Shown: piece by piece, positions 1,507 to 12,949 of the stretch
How the letters are laid out: every line of letters starts with the position of its first letter
Position numbering within the stretch: the first letter of the stretch is position 1
Origin: an uncultured Chlamydiae bacterium
Lineage (GTDB): Bacteria; Chlamydiota; Chlamydiia; Chlamydiales; Parachlamydiaceae
NCBI GenBank assembly: GCA_963830365.1
Contig: CAWHMU010000029.1
Span: 1-17,310 of the forward strand
Length of the DNA stretch: 17,310 nt
Reading direction: 5' to 3'
Made by a program: the position numbers and the translations under genes
The notes under the pieces: model-generated
Databases searched by the model: none
What the model was told of the DNA's origin: nothing
What the model saw: only the letters and a program-made list of their open reading frames with translations

Positions 1507-1745
1507 GGTTCATCACACAAATGAGTGGTTGACAGAGGTGAAAACCCAAAAACCCTAAATGTAGACTTTGGTTGAACGGATTGGGGTCCGGCTTGCGATT
1601 TGCGATTTGAAAGGAGTCGGGCTCTCTAATGCATTTAGGACTTTCAAATCACAAATCACAAGCCGGACCCCAATCCTCAAAGACCTGTCACGCTATGAGT
1701 TTTTGAGAAGTTATCTCTGCCAACCACTCACTTGTGTGATGAACC
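1507..1745. mobile_element. ISL3-derived MITE (239 bp) with an internal 36-bp inverted repeat
   Basis: 31-bp TIRs at 1507-1537 / 1715-1745 (2 mismatches) and an inner IR at 1578-1613 / 1641-1676 (2 mismatches). No exact target duplication. Confidence 0.88.
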
Positions 1746-2912: not shown

Positions 2913-5660
2913 TTAAGCTTGCGGTGTCGCTGTAAAGGCAGCTTTGGCGAGGTAGTCCCCTTCCAGCAGGCGGTAGTTGATCTTGCCGGTGCCCATGATG
3001 GGCAGCTCGTCCAGCTTGATGACGGCAGAGACTCTGACGAGGTTGCTGAAGCCGGAATCCTTCAGGGTGCTATTGACCTCTTCAAGGACGATATCAAAGC
3101 GGCTGAAGAGGAATAATTTCGTCTTCTCTCCCGGAATTTCTTTCGAGCACATAGCCAGGGAAGGCCCCTCTTGATTCGTCGGCCAGCCCTTCTTGACGCC
3201 AGCTTCCAATAGAGCTTCTTCCAGCGATGCCAAACTGACCATTTCGCCGCCGATCTTGACGAAGCGCTTCATCCGGCCGGAAAGCGTCAAAAAGCCTTTG
3301 TCGTCCAGATAGCCGAGATCGCCCGTCTTATACCAGCGCTCGCCATTGATGGTGGCGAAGGGAGAGGCCAGGCCGGGATTGAGATAGCCGTTGAAGATGT
3401 TAGGGCCTTTGGCCAGGATCAGACCGCGCTCGCCCTGTGGCAAGGGCTTTTCAGTCTCAGGATGGACGATGCACAGCTCGATACCGGGGAGGGCTTTGCC
3501 AACGCCCTTGCTGTGGCTGTCGGGCGGATTCATGGTCAATACCGGCGAGCATTCCGTGATGCCGTATCCTTCCATCAGGATGCCCGGCTTGCCGCGCTCT
3601 TCCAGCATTTTGAATAATTCCGGCGGCGCCTTTTCGGCGCCGGTGACGCACAGGCGCATGGTTTTGATATCCTCTGCCGTGGCCGCTTTCAGCATCCCCT
3701 TGATAAATGTCGGCGCGCCGCACATGATGGTCAGCTGCCAGCGGGCAAAGCCGCGCGCCAGCTTCTTGCCGTCGGTAGGATTCGGGGAATAGAACACTCT
3801 CACTCCCGACAAAAGCCCAAGGATGCCGCTGATGGTGAAACCGAAAGAGTGGAACGGCGGCAGGATGCCATAGATGGCATCATCGGAGAAGACCTCGACA
3901 GCCTTAAGGGAAGCTCGCAAATTGCTTAATATATTCTGCTGCGATAGCGGCACGCCTTTGGGCATGCTTTCAGTACCGCTGGTGAACAGCAGCACCGCCG
4001 GGCTGTCTTTGCTGACCTTGTCGATGGCAAACGTCTTCAAGAGGGCTCGCGTGCTCATTTTAGAGCGGATGAAGGCTTTAAGTTTATCGGCAAGGGTGAT
4101 CTCCCGCACCACGTCTTCCAGCATTACCAGCATCTCATCGACGCCGGTGAGGTCGACATTTTCCAGCTTGTCGATGAAGGCCCAGGAGCTCAACACCACC
4201 TGCACTTTGGACAGCTGGGCGACGGACTCCAGATGGCGCGGACCGACGGTCCAGTTGACCATCAGAGGTACCTTGCCGGCCAGCTGGCAGGCCAGGATGA
4301 GCAGGTTGGCGCCGGCGCTGGCCGGCAGCATGATGCCGACATAGGAACCGGGAAGCTTGCGCAGATACTCGGCGATCAGCACGGCGCGCAATTTAAGCTG
4401 GGCATAGGTCTGGATGCCCATGCGGGCATCGGCACAGGCGACGGCCCCTTTGGCACGGGCGCACTGGTTCAAAAATACTTCTGCGATGGTATCGCCAGGG
4501 GCGATATCGACGCGCCGCTTGGCTACCGGCTGCAGCCATTTTGACAGGTTGAATTTTTCATCTTCGACAATTTCTTGGCATTCGATCTGGTGGGCAGCGA
4601 TGCCCATCAACTTGGCAACCGTCGTCAATTCTGTGGCTTGCACGCCGCTGACATCGTATTGATCCTGCAGGAAGGCGATGAGATCTGCCGTATCCAGCGA
4701 GTCAAGGCCGAGATCCGTGGCCAGATGCATTTCAGGTTTTATGGTGGCCGGATCGCATTCCAAAAGCTCGGCCAGTTTGGCGATGATGTTAGCCTGCACC
4801 TCTTTGGGGATGGACGCCAGAGGGATTTCCTTTTCGGAAGGGGCGTTGACACTGCGCAATGGCAGGTACTTCTTAGAGAACATACTATAGGAAACAAGCA
4901 CCAGTGAATCGCCGGGAGACTCCCCGCTTTGCTGGCTCAGCCCATCGGGCTGGTTGTACCATTTCTCAAGGTATCTATTGATCTCCAAACGCGAAGCCTG
5001 GCGCGGGAAATCCACCGGCGCGACTTCAAACTCCACCATGACTTCACGGCGTGGGGTGAACAGGATAAGATTTTTTAGCAGCGCTTTTAAATTATCCACA
5101 ATAATACTCCCCAAGGCTGAAGTATCGCCGGTGGCCCGGGAAAAACTGCTCCCCCATAACCCCTTCACGCGCACCAATACGACATTGGCTTCCGGCACCT
5201 CCTGGATGATGTGGTGGACGGCAGAGGTGCCGCCGATGACTTCCCGTGCGCTATGCTTGGCTTTTCCTGAAGGATATATCAGGAAATTTTCTTTACCTTT
5301 CAAGCCCTCAATGACCTCATTGATGACTTTGTCCCCCTTCTTGCGCTTGAGGCTGTTAGTTGAGCTGACAAAGTCCGGCACCGGCAAAGCATTGATCAGG
5401 CGCATCATCGAATGGACGACGGGCAGATAATACATGAATTCTACCACCAGCGGGCGCACCTTGAATTTAGGCCATAGGGTTAGTGAGGTGATCAGGGGAT
5501 CGATGAAGAAGGTGGGATGGTTCGGCATGAACAGAATGCCTCCCTTCCTATTTAAGGCGGCGGGAGTCAGCTTATCAAAGCCCTTTGCCCGAATGCGATA
5601 GCGCAGCCCAAGGGTCACATTAAGCAATTTGATGGCCAGATATTCGACAACTCTCTTCAC
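2913..5660 (-). CDS. aas: Aas-like fusion: PlsC-type acyltransferase + acyl carrier (PP-binding) domain + AMP-dependent acyl synthetase
   Basis: NHPTFFIDP / IYPSG acyltransferase motifs; DLGLDSLD phosphopantetheine site; adenylation motifs FTSGTESMPKG, EGYGITE, YKTGDLG, GRMKRF and GKI. GTG start; stop lies 1 bp before the mutM start. Confidence 0.9.
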   Translation of the reverse strand: MKRVVEYLAIKLLNVTLGLRYRIRAKGFDKLTPAALNRKGGILFMPNHPTFFIDPLITSLTLWPKFKVRPLVVEFMYYLPVVHSMMRLINALPVPDFVSSTNSLKRKKGDKVINEVIEGLKGKENFLIYPSGKAKHSAREVIGGTSAVHHIIQEVPEANVVLVRVKGLWGSSFSRATGDTSALGSIIVDNLKALLKNLILFTPRREVMVEFEVAPVDFPRQASRLEINRYLEKWYNQPDGLSQQSGESPGDSLVLVSYSMFSKKYLPLRSVNAPSEKEIPLASIPKEVQANIIAKLAELLECDPATIKPEMHLATDLGLDSLDTADLIAFLQDQYDVSGVQATELTTVAKLMGIAAHQIECQEIVEDEKFNLSKWLQPVAKRRVDIAPGDTIAEVFLNQCARAKGAVACADARMGIQTYAQLKLRAVLIAEYLRKLPGSYVGIMLPASAGANLLILACQLAGKVPLMVNWTVGPRHLESVAQLSKVQVVLSSWAFIDKLENVDLTGVDEMLVMLEDVVREITLADKLKAFIRSKMSTRALLKTFAIDKVSKDSPAVLLFTSGTESMPKGVPLSQQNILSNLRASLKAVEVFSDDAIYGILPPFHSFGFTISGILGLLSGVRVFYSPNPTDGKKLARGFARWQLTIMCGAPTFIKGMLKAATAEDIKTMRLCVTGAEKAPPELFKMLEERGKPGILMEGYGITECSPVLTMNPPDSHSKGVGKALPGIELCIVHPETEKPLPQGERGLILAKGPNIFNGYLNPGLASPFATINGERWYKTGDLGYLDDKGFLTLSGRMKRFVKIGGEMVSLASLEEALLEAGVKKGWPTNQEGPSLAMCSKEIPGEKTKLFLFSRFDIVLEEVNSTLKDSGFSNLVRVSAVIKLDELPIMGTGKINYRLLEGDYLAKAAFTATPQA

Positions 5661-5710
5661 AAGAACCCCTAGGTAAATAACGTCATCTTAAAAACAACTC
5701 AAATACATTC

Positions 5711-5836
5711 ACCACAGAGACACAGAGGCACTGAGACACAGAGGCACTGAGAAGCAAGGGATGGAACGGGGTAAACCCGATTAAAGAAGGCTTCATTTAG
5801 CCTGCTTGTTTTGCTCTGTCTCGGTGTCCCGGTAGT
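5711..5836. repeat. ACCACAGAGACACAGAG-type repeat element with a 16-bp tandem duplication and a degenerate inverted arm
   Basis: gagacacagaggcact occurs twice (5717-5748). Degenerate inverse arm ctctgtctcggtgtcccggtagt at 5814-5836. Another inverse half copy lies at 12901-12919. Confidence 0.6.
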
Positions 5837-5857: not shown

Positions 5858-8299
5858 TTAAGCCTGATTCATATATTTTTCTTCAAGCTCATTATAATGA
5901 ATTTTACCGGCGCCGGTGATCGGCAATTTGTCCAATTTCTTTACTAGAGATACTTTTACCAGGTTGCTGAATCCGGCTTTCTTCAATACGCTATTGACTT
6001 CATCAGCCGAGATGTCGAATCTGCAAAACAGGGTGATCTTGGATTTTTCGCCGGCGATTTCTTTGGCGCAGATTGCCAGCATCGGTTCATCCTGGTTGGC
6101 CTGGGGGTAGATTTTTAAGATGTGCTGCATCAGCACGTCTTCGATGGCGGCAAGGCTCACCATCTCGCCTCCCATCTTGACAAAGCGTTTGATGCGTCCG
6201 GAAATTGTCAGGTAGCCATGTTCATCCAGATAGCCAAGATCGCCGGTTTTATACCAATTGGCATTGTTGACCATAGTGAAGGGGGAGGAAATCCCTTTAT
6301 TGACATAGCCGGTGAAGATATTGGGACCATTGACTAAAATCAGCCCGGCTTGGCCGGTGGGCAACAAAACTTCTGTCTCGGGATGGACGATGCATATGTT
6401 TATGCCGGGCAACGGTTTGCCGACACCTTTATGGGGCGCGCCGAGAGGATTCAAGGTTAGTACAGGCGAACATTCGGTGATACCATACCCTTCCCTTAAG
6501 TTTATGCCCTTATTTAATTTCTCCAGCTTCTGAAACAATTCGACTGGGCATTTTTCCGCACCGGTGATACACAGGCGCAGCGTTTTGATTTGACTTGGAT
6601 CGGAGACGAATTTAAGCATGCATTTAAGGAAGGTGGGGGCGGCAAAAATGATCGTTGCCTGCCAGCGCGTGAAGTTGCGGGCGATACAACGGCCGTCGTT
6701 TGGATTAGGGTAGAAAAATACGCGCGTGCCGGAGAGCAAGCCAAGCAGGCCGCCGACGGTAAAGCCAAAGGAATGGAAGGGGGGCAAGAAGCTGAAGATG
6801 ACATCGTCGGAAAAAACGGTCTCGGCGGTTAGGCAGCCCCTTAAGTTACTCAACAGGTTGGTGTGTGAAAGTGGCACGCCCTTGGGCTGCGCTTCGGTGC
6901 CGCTGGTGAATAACAGCACCGCCTGGCTATCGGGCGAGACTTTATCTATGCCAAAGCGTTTCATGATTGCCCGCGTGCCCTGTTTGGCACGGAACCATGC
7001 CTTAAGCTTATCGATGAGGGAGAGCTGCTTGACGATATCATCGATCATCAGCAGGCGGTCGTCGACACCATTGAGATCGACGCTGTCCAGGCGTTCCAGA
7101 AAGGCTGATGAGCTGATCACCACCTCGACATGTGAAATCTCTATCACTGAGGCTAGATGGCGCGGCCCGACGGTCCAGTTTACCATCAACGGCACTTTCC
7201 CCGCCAGCTGGCAGGCCAGGATGAGCAGGTTGGCGCCGACGCTTGAAGGCAGCATGATGCCGATATACTTGCCGGGCAGCTTCCGAATATAATTGGCAAT
7301 GATAATGCTGCGCAGCTTTAGCTCGGCATAAGTTTGTATGCCCAGGCGTTCATCGGCACAGGCGTTTAAATTCCCCGCGCGGGCGCATTGATTTAAAAAG
7401 ACTTCGGCAATGGTCTTTCCCGGCGCGATATCGACGCGGAATTTGACCCTGCCATCCTCCCATTTGGGGAGTGTGACGTTTTTCTTATCTTTAGTTTCGC
7501 CGGCTGGAGGGATGAGCACGAGGGTATCGCCCGGCGTATCGCTTGTACTAGTGGCATCGGCCGGCTTGCCCAGGCCATCGGGACTATTATACCACAGTTC
7601 CAGGCGCCGGTTGAAATCTTGGCGCGTGGCATTCCAGGGGAAGATGGCAGGGGCCACTTCAAACTCGACCACGACATCACGGCGCGGGGCAAAGAACAGT
7701 AAATTCTTAAGCAGAATTTTGGCAGATGAGCATAGCAAGCCAAAAGTTGTCGGTTCTTTGTCGCACAAAGCCCTTGAAAAGCTGCTGCCCCACAGTCCTT
7801 TCACTCTTATCAACACGATGTTGGCATCAGGACAATGGCTGACGATATGATAAGCTGACGTGGCATTACTGCCGATCGTCTCATAGGCGGAATTTTTGAC
7901 TTTGCCTGCCGGATAGATAAGGATATTCTGCTTCAGCTGCAAGCCTTTGATGGCGCGGTCGAGGGCTTCGTCTTGTTTTTTGCGTTTTTGGCTATGACCG
8001 GAGCTGACGAAATTGGGGATAGGGATGCCATCCAAGGCGCACATCAAAGCATGCATCACAGGTACGCGATAGATATTTTCGGCTATCACCGGCCGAAAAG
8101 GAATTTTAGGCCAGAGGGCTAGAAAAGTCACGAGGGTGTCGATGAAATAGGCGGGGTGATTGGACAGAAATACGATGCCGCCAGTTTTAGTGAGCAGGTC
8201 TGCCCTTAAATTTTCCATGCCTTCCACCCGAATGCGATAGCGGCCGGAAAAGGCCAGCTTTATAATACAGGCTAAGAAATATTGGATCGCTTTTTTCAC
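5858..8299 (-). CDS. aas: Second Aas-like paralog (acyltransferase + acyl synthetase) lacking the internal ACP domain
   Basis: Colinear with 2913-5660 (NHPAYFID, KGLWGSSFSRA, NWTVGPRHL, FTSGTEAQPKG, EGYGITE, YKTGDLG) but about 100 aa shorter, with no GxDSL motif. GTG start with AAGGAG RBS. Confidence 0.88.
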   Translation of the reverse strand: MKKAIQYFLACIIKLAFSGRYRIRVEGMENLRADLLTKTGGIVFLSNHPAYFIDTLVTFLALWPKIPFRPVIAENIYRVPVMHALMCALDGIPIPNFVSSGHSQKRKKQDEALDRAIKGLQLKQNILIYPAGKVKNSAYETIGSNATSAYHIVSHCPDANIVLIRVKGLWGSSFSRALCDKEPTTFGLLCSSAKILLKNLLFFAPRRDVVVEFEVAPAIFPWNATRQDFNRRLELWYNSPDGLGKPADATSTSDTPGDTLVLIPPAGETKDKKNVTLPKWEDGRVKFRVDIAPGKTIAEVFLNQCARAGNLNACADERLGIQTYAELKLRSIIIANYIRKLPGKYIGIMLPSSVGANLLILACQLAGKVPLMVNWTVGPRHLASVIEISHVEVVISSSAFLERLDSVDLNGVDDRLLMIDDIVKQLSLIDKLKAWFRAKQGTRAIMKRFGIDKVSPDSQAVLLFTSGTEAQPKGVPLSHTNLLSNLRGCLTAETVFSDDVIFSFLPPFHSFGFTVGGLLGLLSGTRVFFYPNPNDGRCIARNFTRWQATIIFAAPTFLKCMLKFVSDPSQIKTLRLCITGAEKCPVELFQKLEKLNKGINLREGYGITECSPVLTLNPLGAPHKGVGKPLPGINICIVHPETEVLLPTGQAGLILVNGPNIFTGYVNKGISSPFTMVNNANWYKTGDLGYLDEHGYLTISGRIKRFVKMGGEMVSLAAIEDVLMQHILKIYPQANQDEPMLAICAKEIAGEKSKITLFCRFDISADEVNSVLKKAGFSNLVKVSLVKKLDKLPITGAGKIHYNELEEKYMNQA

Positions 8300-8338: not shown

Positions 8339-8376
8339 TTTTGCCCTTTTCGCTAAATAAATTCCATAGCGGAAAT
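8339..8376 (+). repeat. 38-bp direct repeat, copy A (partner at 12819-12856)
   Basis: ttttgcccttttcgctaaataaattccatagcggaaat vs ttttgccctttttcccaaattaattccatagtgtaaat: 32/38 identical without gaps. Confidence 0.75.
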
Positions 8377-8378
8377 GA

Positions 8379-8402
8379 AGCTCATCGCGCAAATGAGCAG
8401 CT
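8379..8402. repeat. Degenerate ISL3 TIR (left-end orientation)
   Basis: agctcatcgcgcaaatgagcagct is 21/24 identical to the reverse complement of 1301-1324. Confidence 0.8.
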
Positions 8403-8533: not shown

Positions 8534-8658
8534 CTATACCATGATCCAGTGAGAATTTGACATCTTGGGTCACTTTCGATCTTTCAACTGCGGGGCTTTG
8601 GCGCAGCCAAAATGTGCACAACCTAACCGCGCATGGTCCTAACCACGCAATGGTATAG
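8534..8658. repeat. TA-flanked MITE-like element (CTATACCAT...ATGGTATAG)
   Basis: 9-bp terminal IR at 8534-8542 / 8650-8658. The right arm tgtgcacaacctaaccgcgcatggt resembles the 1401-1462 arms and has a local tandem duplication (8622-8637 / 8638-8654). Confidence 0.55.
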
Positions 8659-8695: not shown

Positions 8696-8810
8696 CAGGC
8701 AGAAATTTAAGGTTCATCACACAAATGAGTGGTTGACATTCATCCAGTTTTGGGGCCAAAGACGTGAAGTAGAGTATAGAGATGTTACTAGGCGAAGCCC
8801 ATCTCTTTGT

Positions 8811-9205
8811 AGCCCGTCAGCTAAGGCTTGCGAGCGAAAGCGAAGACAGCCACAGCTACGGGTTTGTACAAACAAAAGATAACCCCATCGAGACAATTGC
8901 AAAAGTATTTCACGAGTTATACAGCGATTCTTTGGAAGTCAATCGTACCCGGGATCAAAATGAATCGATGCTAGAACGCTCAAAACTACACAAAAACTCG
9001 AGCTTTACTTCAAGAATTCACAATAACTTCAATTTAGAACAATTTATTGTCACTTATGCAATTGCCTCCATCGGGGTTCTTCTCTTTAGTCCTTATACCT
9101 TAATAGATTAAAAGAGAAGAACCCCGATGGGGTTAAGCAGTCAATTTACTGTTCCCGTAGCTGCGGCTGTCTTCGCTTTCGCTCGCAAGCCTTAGCTGAC
9201 GGGCT
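8811..9205. repeat. Pair of inverted 52-bp palindromic units (REP/REPIN-like)
   Basis: 8811-8862 equals the reverse complement of 9154-9205 with 1 mismatch. Each unit is itself an imperfect hairpin (cccgt-agct...agct-acggg). Confidence 0.9.
9068..9130. repeat. Perfect 20-bp inverted repeat
   Basis: ccatcggggttcttctcttt (9068-9087) / aaagagaagaaccccgatgg (9111-9130). Confidence 0.9.
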
Positions 9206-9206
9206 T

Positions 9207-9498
9207 CCGAGTAACAATAGGTTGAATGCTTACGAAACTTATGCCTGCGTTATTGGTGGATATTTCATCATTTCTCCTGCTTTTGGAGTCGAAAGGCATT
9301 AATCATTAAAAAGGCGGAGGAAAGAACATAATGCCAGGCGATCTTCCGAACGGGATAGCTATGCTTCCCAATGATATTATCGCGATTCTTTCCGACCAAG
9401 CTACAAAACGGGCATTCAGCACCAGTGCTCGATGGGTCAATTTTTTCCACGAATTTTTGATTACCGCTATTCAACCGGTCTTACTTTTTTTGTCTTTT
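9207..9498 (-). ncRNA. Candidate bridge/seek RNA in the IS110 3' non-coding end
   Basis: About 290 nt non-coding with several stems. Contains a target-like segment (9408-9418, 9/11) followed by a donor-junction match (9341-9349, 9/9). Confidence 0.4.
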
Positions 9499-10896
9499 TT
9501 ACGCCGCTACGGCAACTAGTTTATAACCTAATTTTTCAGCTTTTTTATGCAACCCAGCCAAGTTTTTCATTGCATGCATTTTTTCATTATATTCGGCTCC
9601 TTTTTCATAATATTGCCAGCCTTCCTTACACATGTGATATACCATTGTCGCTAGCTTATGCGCTCCAGCCTTAATCCCTTTAGAGTTGTCCGTTCGGCCG
9701 CATATGCGCCTGATATGTGCTCCCAATGCTGCATCTGATTTTTTAGCTGCCACTGCAGACATTCTTAAAGCTTGTGAAATGTAATTGGCGCTTGGTTTTT
9801 GCCTTTTGCTTTTACGTCGTTTGCCTCCTGAAACATTGTTGCCGGGGGACAGTTTCAACCAGGAAGAAAATGCTTTTTCGCTATTCCATGCACTTACGTC
9901 AGTCCCTCCAAGTTCTGAATAAATGAGTAGAGCAGTACTATCTGCTATACCTGGCAGGGCAGTTAGGTCTATTCCCGTTTTTCTCCAGAGAGTGTCTCTG
10001 ACACCAAAACAAAGATCATTTTTCTTAGGTTTTTTGAATTGAGAAAACTGAGGACGCTTTTTTTTATCCTTATGGTTCTCTGGTGGAGGCGTATTGACTA
10101 CATCAGGAAATCGCTCAAGCTCCTTCTGAATGCATTCGTCACATGCGTCCAGCTGTTTATGTGCAAAATCGTATTGATCTAGGGCTTGCTTTAGCGAAAA
10201 AATATGTTCATCTTGATAATTCCCTGTCAGAGCTGCTACAAATAGGCTCTCTTCTTTTTTGCAAAGCTTATTCCTCATTGCAGCTAACTTATATGGATCT
10301 CTTTCACCAGCTACTATTGCTCGTGTTATATTTAAACCGGAGACTCCCGCTATATCGCTTACAGCGGTGCTCAGCTTGATATTCATTAGCTGCAAGGCTT
10401 TTTCCATATGCAGAAGTGCATATTGCTTCGTTTTGATGACATTCATGCGCTGTCTTACATACGCCCGCAATTTTAAACGATCGCGTGGCGGGCGATAAGC
10501 AGCTCTTAATAGACCACAAGAATATAATGTTTGGATCCATTGAGCATCCACCACATCAGTTTTTCTCCCTGGTGGATTTTTTACATTTTTAGCATCCACT
10601 AAGACAGGCATCAAGCCTGATTCTTCCATAATTTCATATAGGGGAATCCAATAAACACCCGTAGCTTCCATAACACCAATTTCTACTTTAGCCTCTTTAA
10701 GAACTTTGACTATTTCACGGAGTTGAGGTGTCGTTGTACCAAATTCCCTCACGTAAGAACCACCTTTACCATCAGGAATAGCTACATGGATTAGCTTATC
10801 TCCTATATCGATGCCAGCAACAGTAGGATCGATATATCCAAGCCTGTTTTTATGTTGTTGTTTTTTTAAATGATTGGAATTGCTATTATTAGACAT
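9499..10896 (-). CDS. IS110-family DEDD recombinase/transposase
   Basis: RuvC-like DEDD motifs AGIDIG, VMEATGVYW and RKTDVVDA; C-terminal LPGI...LSPGNNVSGG (catalytic Ser motif); intact 465 aa with AAGGAG RBS. Confidence 0.97.
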   Translation of the reverse strand: MSNNSNSNHLKKQQHKNRLGYIDPTVAGIDIGDKLIHVAIPDGKGGSYVREFGTTTPQLREIVKVLKEAKVEIGVMEATGVYWIPLYEIMEESGLMPVLVDAKNVKNPPGRKTDVVDAQWIQTLYSCGLLRAAYRPPRDRLKLRAYVRQRMNVIKTKQYALLHMEKALQLMNIKLSTAVSDIAGVSGLNITRAIVAGERDPYKLAAMRNKLCKKEESLFVAALTGNYQDEHIFSLKQALDQYDFAHKQLDACDECIQKELERFPDVVNTPPPENHKDKKKRPQFSQFKKPKKNDLCFGVRDTLWRKTGIDLTALPGIADSTALLIYSELGGTDVSAWNSEKAFSSWLKLSPGNNVSGGKRRKSKRQKPSANYISQALRMSAVAAKKSDAALGAHIRRICGRTDNSKGIKAGAHKLATMVYHMCKEGWQYYEKGAEYNEKMHAMKNLAGLHKKAEKLGYKLVAVAA

Positions 10897-10964
10897 GAAC
10901 GATCTCCTTTTAGCTTTTTACTGTGAGAAAAAGAAAGCTATTATAAGAGATCGTTCTTTTTTTT
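10897..10964 (-). promoter_or_regulatory. RBS-occluding hairpin with an internal TATAAT -10 upstream of the IS110 ORF
   Basis: gaacgatctc (10897-10906) / gagatcgttc (10947-10956), with inner tagcttt/aaagcta. Minus-strand TATAAT at 10940-10945. A T8 run follows on the plus strand. Confidence 0.6.
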
Positions 10965-11128
10965 CGAATTATGACAACCGTTACTTTCCAGATATCAGCG
11001 GTAAACCGCTTGGGCGCTACAAAGAGATGGGTTTGTCCATGCCTTGCTTCACATCTTTAACCTGCAAAAAATGATGAACCACTTTTAAACCACTCATTTG
11101 TGTGATGAGCCAAATTTAACAACGTATA

Positions 11129-11196: not shown

Positions 11197-12609
11197 ATGA
11201 CAAGCACAAACACAGGCGGCGGCCCAAACATAAATAATTTTCAAATGTCTTTTAGTTTATTTGCCACCTCTTCTGCATCAACACCAGCATCCGCAAGCAC
11301 CCAGGGAGGAACCATAAGTCCTTTGGTTTCAATGGCTATGGCTTCTTCCCCCTCTCCAACTAGCAATATGGGAACAATGATAGGAATAAGTAATGAAGTA
11401 GTTGCTGAGACAGAAGAAAAACATTATGAAGCAGGGACTGCAAAGCATTATAAAACCATTAGGATAATTGACGACCTCTTCCACGATTATCTAGTCGGCC
11501 CAAAAAGCGAGCTGGAACAGGAATGCAAAGCGGCCAAGGAGATTGCATTAGCCCTGTCCCAAACGATAGAAGCTGGTGTATCTGAAGATAGCGATAGCGA
11601 CGGAGATGATAGTTTAGCAGACTACAGCGCTCCAAAAAAGCACGAAACGACTGCTGAAGAAATACTAAGATTTCTGGGGAAAAATTCAGTCGGAATGGGA
11701 TTGGAATTGGATGTTCAAGAAACTAAGCTCACCGACGGCTCTTATGCCATAAAAGTCCCCCATGCTAAATGCACCATGGACCAGGAGTTTGCCGAGCTGT
11801 TTGACAATGGGCCGGCAAAAGACCACTTCCAAACCATGGCCAAACTATGCACAGAATTTTTGCATGGCATGTGCGACCTGCAGGCCGCAGGCTATGTACA
11901 CGGCAATCTCAAAGCTGGAAATTTGAAAATCTATCAGGATGAGCAGTTTATCAATGCTGAAAAGAGCTTGAAGATTTCAGGATTAAAGAAAGTGCAGCTC
12001 TGCAAGGACAATCAAGAATCGACCTATACTGGAAATATGCGCACCGTCAATCCTGAAGGCATACTAAGCAAAAATGGAGAGGTCTATAGTGTCGCTTTGC
12101 TGCTCACCGGCATGCTGGAAAGCGAGTTTTTATACTACGCTAACACAAAAAGAAACACCGATATGCTTGTCCAGCCGGAAACAACAGCCGCTAATAGTAT
12201 ATATCCCCTCCCTGACAATTGCCATGGCTTCGAGAAGTTTCTATGCCTTGACAAGGATTGTCCCCAATTTGCTGCCGACAGTACAGCTGGAAAAATAACA
12301 AGAGTTGCCCAAACGGTAGCTTCCTTTATTCCCTTTGTCTCCAGTTGGGTCGCCTATGACCCGACTTGCGCCGCTGCAAAACAAATCCGCACAAAAGTCC
12401 ACAAGTATATTGACGCCGTTTGCGATGAGCTCACCAATAAGTATCAGGATGCATTCAATATTAAAGCCTTGAATGCCTTGCTCAAAAAAATGACGGATGA
12501 GAAACCCAGCCAGCGCGGCACGATGCAGGATGCTATGACGGAGTTTTCGAAGGCGGTAAAGCCATCATCAGGCGGAAGCTCTAAAAAGACCGATGAACAC
12601 AAGCTGTAG
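11197..12609 (+). CDS. Hanks-type Ser/Thr kinase-like protein (probable pseudokinase) with a Ser/Thr-rich N-terminus
   Basis: GYVHGNLKAGNL (catalytic loop), LKISGLKK (DFG position), YTGNMRTVNPE (activation/APE), GEVYSVA (subdomain IX) and PSQRGT (subdomain XI). Confidence 0.75.
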   Translation: MTSTNTGGGPNINNFQMSFSLFATSSASTPASASTQGGTISPLVSMAMASSPSPTSNMGTMIGISNEVVAETEEKHYEAGTAKHYKTIRIIDDLFHDYLVGPKSELEQECKAAKEIALALSQTIEAGVSEDSDSDGDDSLADYSAPKKHETTAEEILRFLGKNSVGMGLELDVQETKLTDGSYAIKVPHAKCTMDQEFAELFDNGPAKDHFQTMAKLCTEFLHGMCDLQAAGYVHGNLKAGNLKIYQDEQFINAEKSLKISGLKKVQLCKDNQESTYTGNMRTVNPEGILSKNGEVYSVALLLTGMLESEFLYYANTKRNTDMLVQPETTAANSIYPLPDNCHGFEKFLCLDKDCPQFAADSTAGKITRVAQTVASFIPFVSSWVAYDPTCAAAKQIRTKVHKYIDAVCDELTNKYQDAFNIKALNALLKKMTDEKPSQRGTMQDAMTEFSKAVKPSSGGSSKKTDEHKL

Positions 12610-12787: not shown

Positions 12788-12811
12788 AGGTACTCATTTC
12801 TGCAATGAGGC
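12788..12811. repeat. Degenerate ISL3 TIR (right-end orientation)
   Basis: aggtactcatttctgcaatgaggc is 20/24 identical to 1301-1324. Confidence 0.7.
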
Positions 12812-12818
12812 TTATTTG

Positions 12819-12856
12819 TTTTGCCCTTTTTCCCAAATTAATTCCATAGTGTAAAT
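12819..12856 (+). repeat. 38-bp direct repeat, copy B
   Basis: 32/38 identical to 8339-8376. Confidence 0.75.
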
Positions 12857-12949
12857 TGGAGTGTACTGCGCAACCATTTCTCTTTCCCCTGTTTCACTGC
12901 GCCTCTGTGACTCTTTGGTAAATTGTCTTCCTTAGGAGCTCGTGCTATT

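Follow-up and report, generated by a model that had tools for sequence, protein, structure and literature searches.

Insertion of IS110 elements at REPs is already established. The core CT of IS621 of E. coli lies in the CTAC foot of a REP, in the target ATCAGGC-CT-AC (PMC11208160, accessible in part), and ISPpu9 of P. putida has AG at both ends and inserts in REPs, with many copies in REP doublets, according to the accessible portions of PMC12288879 and PMC3184786. The IS1111 group (ISPa11, ISEc11; IS4321/IS5075) carries a long non-coding end downstream of its gene and targets other mobile or repeated DNA, such as REPs, attC and, according to a title cited in PMC11187229, the TIRs of Tn21. 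For the repeats themselves, the nearest described systems are REP/REPIN-RAYT and TIRtrons, with GTAG-footed palindromes, inverted doublets and a flanking Y1 HUH gene (PMC3733652, PMC6006769 and 10.1101/2021.07.10.451892, each in the part available). TIRtrons consist of long repeats flanking Y1 genes, GTAG repeats have been reported in the PVC superphylum (available part of PMC3733652), and REPINs are held distinct from MITEs in the available part of 10.1101/2021.07.10.451892. ISL3-derived MITEs have ISL3-like TIRs and an 8-bp TSD, are non-coding and multi-copy, and share a genome with intact ISL3 elements.

The locus analysed here lies in a window of 17,310 nucleotides and combines traits of all these systems. 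Like IS621, its IS110 element encodes a DEDD and serine recombinase, has its core CT in the CTAC foot of the target repeat (here GACGGG-CT-AC) and has predicted left guides of 7 or more nucleotides that include the core. It differs from IS621 in its gene-strand core AG, in a long guide that reads the flank outside the hairpin, in a candidate right guide that precedes the left one, in a predicted bridge RNA located at the downstream instead of the upstream end, and in a target repeat that lies inside MITEs. With ISPpu9 it shares the described traits of AG at both ends, REP insertion, a small left-end hairpin and many copies in repeat doublets (PMC12288879, in part); the REPs of ISPpu9, however, are 35-bp chromosomal repeats and not MITE cargo. 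The single mechanisms are known, and we regard the system as a variant in which the combination, the packaging of Y1-associated doublets and the relocated bridge RNA are new. Less familiar are the presence of REP-like doublets in four DDE-type MITE families and a bridge RNA downstream of the gene; in the literature searched, covered in part and with PMC11602168 among it, DDE MITEs that contain REP-like doublets and serve as IS110 targets are not described.

Layers of the composite element

The assembly under study (G000) is a MAG of 2.73 Mb in 48 contigs, 82% complete. The window is its contig C29; other C-numbers denote further contigs of this assembly, and other G-numbers further genomes compared. 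BLAST against the genome resolves the 2401 bp of the composite into three layers, namely a 405-bp MITE, a 179-bp element and an 1813-bp IS110 (Table 1). We name R1 the REP-like repeat in the 405-bp MITE, R2 and R3 its sister repeats, and R4 another Y1-associated repeat.

Table 1. Positions of the features of the composite element and of related sequences in the window
Feature	Position	Strand	Remark
ISL3 family-1 element, cut by contig start	1..1324	-	317 aa here, 401 aa in intact copies
Sister 239-bp ISL3-type MITE	1507..1745	.	Same outer TIR, R4 doublet inside
Left 8-bp target duplication AAATTTAA	8703..8710	+	Matches right copy
Left outer TIR GGTTCATCACACAAATGAGTGGTT	8711..8734	+	ISL3-type, 24 bp
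Left inner TIR, degenerate	8739..8753	+	Like ends of second ISL3 family (GGTTCATCCGG)
Left R1 arm	8799..8889	+	GTAG 8809-8812, long hairpin 8813-8862
179-bp non-autonomous element, TIR GAG(A/G)CAATTGCA	8890..9068	.	IS1182/IS5-like MITE
Doublet centre	9069..9130	.	23-nt loop with the adjoining inner end of each R1 arm
Right R1 arm up to IS110 insertion point	9111..9205	+	Core CT 9204-9205
IS110 element, 1813 bp	9206..11018	-	One core copy included (CT 11017-11018; AG on gene strand)
Downstream non-coding end, 293 bp	9206..9498	-	Predicted bridge RNA scaffold inside
Predicted bridge RNA scaffold	about 9300-9445	-	Conserved, in downstream end; extent approximate
Predicted left donor guide UCGGAAG	9343..9349	-	Identical to own downstream end and core
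Predicted left target guide UUUGUAG	9401..9407	-	Identical to target flank and core
Candidate right target guide	9426..9432	-	Pairing: G of the core; +1, +3, +4 of the target
IS110 recombinase gene, 465 aa	9499..10896	-	
Upstream non-coding end, 122 bp	10897..11018	-	Short hairpin close to core
Rest of right R1 arm beyond IS110	11019..11031	+	
Right inner TIR, degenerate	11061..11080	-	ISL3 family 2 type
Right outer TIR	11088..11111	-	23/24 complementary to left TIR
Right 8-bp duplication AAATTTAA	11112..11119	+	

The duplicated octamer occurs 221 times in the 5.46 million positions of the genome. Among the 56 TIR pairs listed genome-wide with at most five mismatches, 24 have a perfect 8-bp duplication, every one of them different; given these counts, the duplication in the window is not due to chance. 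Judged by these 24 perfect duplications of differing sequence, the ISL3-type MITE family appears to be active. The family has TIRs like those of an autonomous ISL3, an 8-bp TSD and multiple non-coding copies, with a sister subfamily of 410-412 bp that is TSD-flanked at C2 and C18. The outer TIR has 17-18 of 24 bases in common with the TIR of the intact ISL3 family 1 of this genome, the inner end pair matches ISL3 family 2, and intact 401-aa transposases of both families are present; no intact ISL3 with exactly the outer TIR of the MITE was found behind the 13 unpaired ends examined. Two nested ISL3 end pairs set this element apart from ISL3-derived MITEs, as does an interior formed by a Y1-associated repeat doublet and not by deleted ISL3 sequence. 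The MITE at 1507-1745 has no TSD (3/8 mismatches), and its R4 also flanks Y1 genes on C20.

The second layer is flanked by a 4-bp duplication, CATC (8886-8889 and 9069-9072), having landed in a small CCCC-n3-GGGG hairpin of R1. Copies of this element lie mostly in such hairpins, and the one in the window is identical to four of the five others compared. Hairpin loops are the target of some IS1182 members. Relatives of 592 bp and 1463 bp exist, the longer of which (C1:1-1463) is a coding partner with a DDE transposase (PF05598 and PF01609) that we class as IS1182/IS5-like, its top NCBIfam match being IS1182 at 72.8 bits, under the cut-off of 270.

The third layer has a fixed target, a shared core dinucleotide and neither TIR-type ends nor a TSD, as in the IS110 family, and both of its boundaries are identical in every copy that retains them. 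The recombinase passes the NCBIfam model NF033542 (IS110) with 210 bits against a cut-off of 140 and contains PF01548 and PF02371. Residues D30, E77, D114, D117 and S356 are invariant among 46 homologues, and the DEDD motif and catalytic serine align with those of IS621 (PMC11208158). The genome holds 14 loci of the element in two subfamilies about 5.5% apart; the copy in the window has private SNPs. Copies C34:48545-49915 and C46:81769-82915 are interrupted or truncated by other IS, adding further nesting layers. The closest named homologues of the recombinase come from a Chlamydiales MAG, which points to a chlamydial host, and a plasmid search returned only IS110s of about 41% identity; a single-protein query gave no match against the genome contigs, and an alignment query matched.

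The sequence-only reading had described most of this shell correctly: the ISL3-type TIRs with their perfect duplication and the IS110 ORF as the only credible gene are borne out, the 109-aa ORF at 8782-9111 being rejected as a gene, as it crosses from one element into another and matches nothing in Pfam. Its estimate of a MITE of about 550 bp after removal of the IS110 was wrong, since 588 bp are left and 183 bp of them belong to a third mobile element that it had overlooked; accordingly, the empty MITE that it proposed to look for does exist, at C7:29922-30326, but measures 405 bp. Likewise, its comparison with the MITE at 1507-1745 stands for the ends, 1507-1534 being identical to 8711-8738, and fails for the inner repeat, which is different. 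The genome-wide TIR-pair search that it proposed gave the 56 pairs reported above.

Target and predicted bridge RNA of the IS110 element

On the gene strand the insertion site reads TTTGT-AG-CCCG, where AG belongs to the GTAG at the foot of the long R1 hairpin. R1 adjoins 12 of the 13 left-end and all ten right-end junctions, and 13 of the 14 copies lie in R1, including one (C47) at which 11 nt of R1 were lost. The thirteenth left-end junction is that of a 62-bp remnant on C21, outside R1, at a site where the match to the left guide persists. The genome retains 65 empty R1 sites; the left arm in the window (core AG 8811-8812) is an unoccupied target. The 77 R2/R3 sites, which have TTTGTAGCCC but no G at +4, are all free of IS110 (p=1.4e-4). 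Insertions were found in left and right arms, in two MITE subfamilies, in an older ISL3 shell and in a MITE with CTTGTC ends (C41:60553-62858, 9-bp TSD). In ISL3 shells the R1 arms stand back-to-back, and in the latter family, of 487 bp with 9-bp duplications, they stand face-to-face. The IS110 thus targets the GTAG foot of R1, not the MITE as such. The idea that it parasitises a MITE family is right insofar as the family is multi-copy and ISL3-type hosts hold 8 of the 13 left-end junctions, but it misses that the target is a repeat found in an unrelated MITE family as well. Occupancy is higher in ISL3-type arms (8/23) than in the face-to-face family (3/37; p=0.015) with the same predicted guide word, in a comparison where sites are not independent, hosts were classed by motif rules and C1 was assigned by eye.

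Related IS110s with downstream RNA were also observed in G089 (L118, L120 and L121), where their insertion site is the AG in the GGAG foot of a doublet repeat, with 28 pattern matches against none in a reversed control. Two elements with 47-64% identity to the IS110 in the window have this target in common.

The downstream non-coding end, with guides that match target and donor, is predicted to contain a bridge RNA. Of 166 related loci, 84 contain a conserved scaffold, which lies upstream of the gene in 77 and downstream in seven. In a set of 67 distinct guide pairs, 46 left target guides recur in the upstream flank of the element that encodes them (1.2 on average and at most 6 after shuffling), and 54 left donor guides recur at the downstream end of theirs (0.95 on average and at most 5 after shuffling), with a null that omits pairings of identical guides and is therefore slightly lower for the common donor guide. 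The right-guide register is weaker than the left guides, scoring 129 matches in 55 elements where the null gives 71 (at most 96), L119 and L013 being excluded because their junctions are not trusted. As the candidate right guide pairs with +4, it fits the discrimination of R1 from R2/R3 at that position. Visual inspection yielded no right donor guide, and the MFE fold of the predicted RNA is no better than that of shuffles (z=0.34).

The longer downstream end is a trait of the IS1111 group. In contrast to that group, however, the element lacks subterminal inverted repeats of 7-17 bp at distances of about 7 and 3 bp from its termini, the sole such pair being one of 6 bp (GTTACT/AGTAAC) located 4 and 31 nt away from the core, and most of its scaffold-bearing relatives (77/84) have the RNA upstream. 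In view of the missing repeats we assign it to the IS110 type, with its RNA placed downstream, exceptions of which kind are noted in the available part of PMC11187229. In a FastTree phylogeny of 30 related proteins, six of the seven downstream-RNA loci fall in one clade with support 1.00; as the tree is midpoint-rooted with no outgroup, the relocation may have gone in either direction. The element would provide a small bridge recombinase that was active recently and whose natural target is fully mapped, together with the empty on-target sites and the near-target R2/R3 sites of a single genome, and with a predicted downstream RNA in a clade whose relatives have it upstream.

Origin of the composite and of its R1 repeats

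We consider it probable that the 405-bp MITE landed first and that the 179-bp element and the IS110 were then inserted successively in place. According to this model, R1 would have arisen as a palindrome on either side of a Y1 HUH gene; an R1 doublet without the gene would then have acquired ISL3 ends, those of family 2 before those of a family-1-like type. The MITE would be spread in trans by an ISL3 transposase, and R1 multiplied with it. Wherever R1 occurs, in any MITE shell, the bridge-RNA-guided recombinase would join the circle junction to the target, conserving one core copy per end, and the IS1182/IS5-like element would independently pick the small R1 hairpin. The MITEs would serve as gene-free landing sites, each composite being assembled in place. 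If so, a transposase of another kind can multiply the sites that an RNA-guided recombinase recognises, and a fixed guide would stay useful.

The alternative, proposed by the sequence-only reading as a second, DDE-driven route of mobility, is that one or more MITEs already loaded with the IS110 were moved whole by an ISL3 transposase in trans, creating the AAATTTAA duplication. The TIRs and TSD of the composite are undamaged, and the genome encodes intact 401-aa ISL3 transposases. Composites with other duplications, which that reading expected, do occur at C42:67789-70007 (AAAAAATG), at the end of C2 and start of C38 (AATCTTGA, inferred across the contig break) and in the CTTGTC family at C41; the C42 composite even belongs to the same MITE and IS subfamilies as the one in the window and is filled in the same arm, with a different TSD. 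However, descent from one loaded unit should give equal divergence of host and IS. The C29 and C42 hosts have 10/406 differences and their IS110s 4/1814 (Fisher p=2e-5; p=0.02 with the non-coding ends of the IS only), the C29 host is just as distant from the empty C7 copy (10/406), and the IS110 of C42 is identical to that of C47, which sits in a different host. The mismatch is reversed between C34 and C38 (host 1/226, IS110 93/1823), no composite pair has matching divergences, and a filled and an empty copy (C34 and C28) have 320 bp of flank in common. Movement of the composite as a unit is thus not supported by these comparisons, nor by the use of both arms and of two IS subfamilies, although a move in which the donor copy was lost may have taken place.

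It must be taken into account that mosaic tracts in the IS110 copies of C34 and C38 weaken the clock, as gene conversion could have reset it, and that palindromic hosts may mutate faster. Furthermore, the higher occupancy of ISL3-type arms speaks against assembly in place insofar as it is also expected from movement of loaded units. Taking both sides together, we regard transposition of a loaded MITE as unlikely and retain successive insertion as the preferred explanation.

The proposed source of R1 is a Y1 locus. On contig C46 of G019, a member of a related genus, two R1 arms enclose a 151-aa Y1 HUH gene (PF01797) whose product passes the IS200/IS605 model and has the YxxxQxxHH motif of subclass 1.2, as described in the accessible part of PMC6006769. 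With two R1 arms around this gene, the interior of the MITE looks like such a locus minus the gene. R1 shares with REPs and REPINs the GTAG at the palindrome foot, the inverted doublets and, in G019, the flanking Y1 HUH gene. Unlike in REP/REPIN-RAYT systems, its unit is long (about 115 bp, with a hairpin of about 55 nt) and exceeds the 20-40 bp REP range, for which reason we call it REP-like; the Y1 protein carries the subclass 1.2 motif, a subclass generally without typical terminal structures according to the available part of PMC6006769. The doublets also differ from REPINs in being enclosed by DDE-type TIRs and TSDs.

R1 could instead be merely internal MITE sequence, unlinked to Y1 HUH genes, with the Y1 gene of G019 captured between repeats. 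The cognate gene is present in only 1 of the 73 family genomes searched, R1 is longer than classical REPs, and a single arm folds weakly (z=-1.69). In the 82%-complete G000 assembly no Y1 gene cognate to R1 was found, nor any Y1 gene within 6 kb of R1, although it holds a gene 64% identical to that of G019, flanked by the sister repeat R2; a DNA search of the 72 other family genomes gave matches in five, with R1 itself in four. On the other hand, three further Y1 genes of G000 and one of G056 are each flanked by a palindrome family of their own, two of them GTAG-CCC-footed, and R1 doublets free of TIRs exist in G019: among six examined, four are without a TIR-TSD pair, one has ends of ISL3 family-2 type with a near-perfect TSD and one has IS1182-like ends. 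An origin of R1 unconnected with Y1 genes is therefore quite improbable, and a Y1 locus remains our preferred source.

In G000, nine Y1 (PF01797) matches were observed, unusually many for a 2.7-Mb genome, at sites including C27:48439-48888, C45:169619-170500, C20:43615-48917, C33:72173, C23:24348, C28:30322 and C17:28013; those inspected each have a different flanking palindrome family. Four DDE-ended MITE families of this genome, namely ISL3 of 405/412 bp, ISL3 of 239/498 bp, CTTGTC of 487 bp and IS1182-like of 592 bp, each hold an inverted doublet of a Y1-flanking repeat (examples: 1507-1745 in the window, C3:23989-24579 and C42:159604-160090), and R2 doublets are located in the 592-bp MITE. 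R3 forms a tandem array at C16:73782-78973, with about 14 doublets and a period near 384 bp.

A broader reading would be that in this lineage palindromes of Y1 HUH genes are routinely packaged in unrelated DDE ends, their doublets being spread by borrowed DDE transposases and tracked, sometimes hitch-ridden, by an IS110 with a relocated bridge RNA, in a parasitism chain of four enzymes. This reading draws on four MITE families in G000 and two shells in G019, and we offer it as speculative and rather doubtful. Already under the preferred model, packaging in MITEs would provide a spread route for REP-like doublets that does not depend on their HUH enzyme, bearing on how REPINs replicate, and MITE-packaged doublets would blur the published distinction between REPINs and MITEs.

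Assembly and remainder of the window

An assembly chimera of collapsed repeats is very improbable as the source of the composite: the MAG is fragmented, several contigs begin inside IS copies, C46 and C8 hold the split ends of one TSD and flanks are duplicated in C34/C28 and C33/C6, yet the 8-bp TSD matches across 2.4 kb, the 4-bp TSD matches around the inner element and the IS copy has its private SNPs. The single DNA sequencing run (share 0.06) yielded six short pieces, none of which crosses a junction, and does not enter the evidence. The split case concerns C46:115438 and C8:30625, where a MITE insertion with the duplication AGCAATGT has its two ends on different contigs, each beside an IS110 copy, which may reflect rearrangement between copies or misassembly.

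Elsewhere in the window, an Rfam scan gave six weak hairpin matches, none reaching the gathering score, and a promoter scan gave 6 sites against 5.6 expected. The ISL3 transposase at 253-1206 has one added G in a G run, leading to the stop at 317 aa. Positions 2913-5660 and 5858-8299 are a tandem paralogue pair similar to acyltransferase/acyl-ACP synthetase (Aas-like) genes, separated by an 8-bp tandem repeat tract (5707-5752) whose complement appears again at 12885-12923. A 470-aa ORF (11197-12609) with a low-complexity N-terminus starts 78 bp past the composite element and has a weak protein-kinase match, under the Pfam cut-off. Isolated pieces of ISL3 ends, together with a family of 37-bp repeats, fill the intergenic DNA nearby (8339-8402, 12788-12856, 1959-1991 and 8601-8637).
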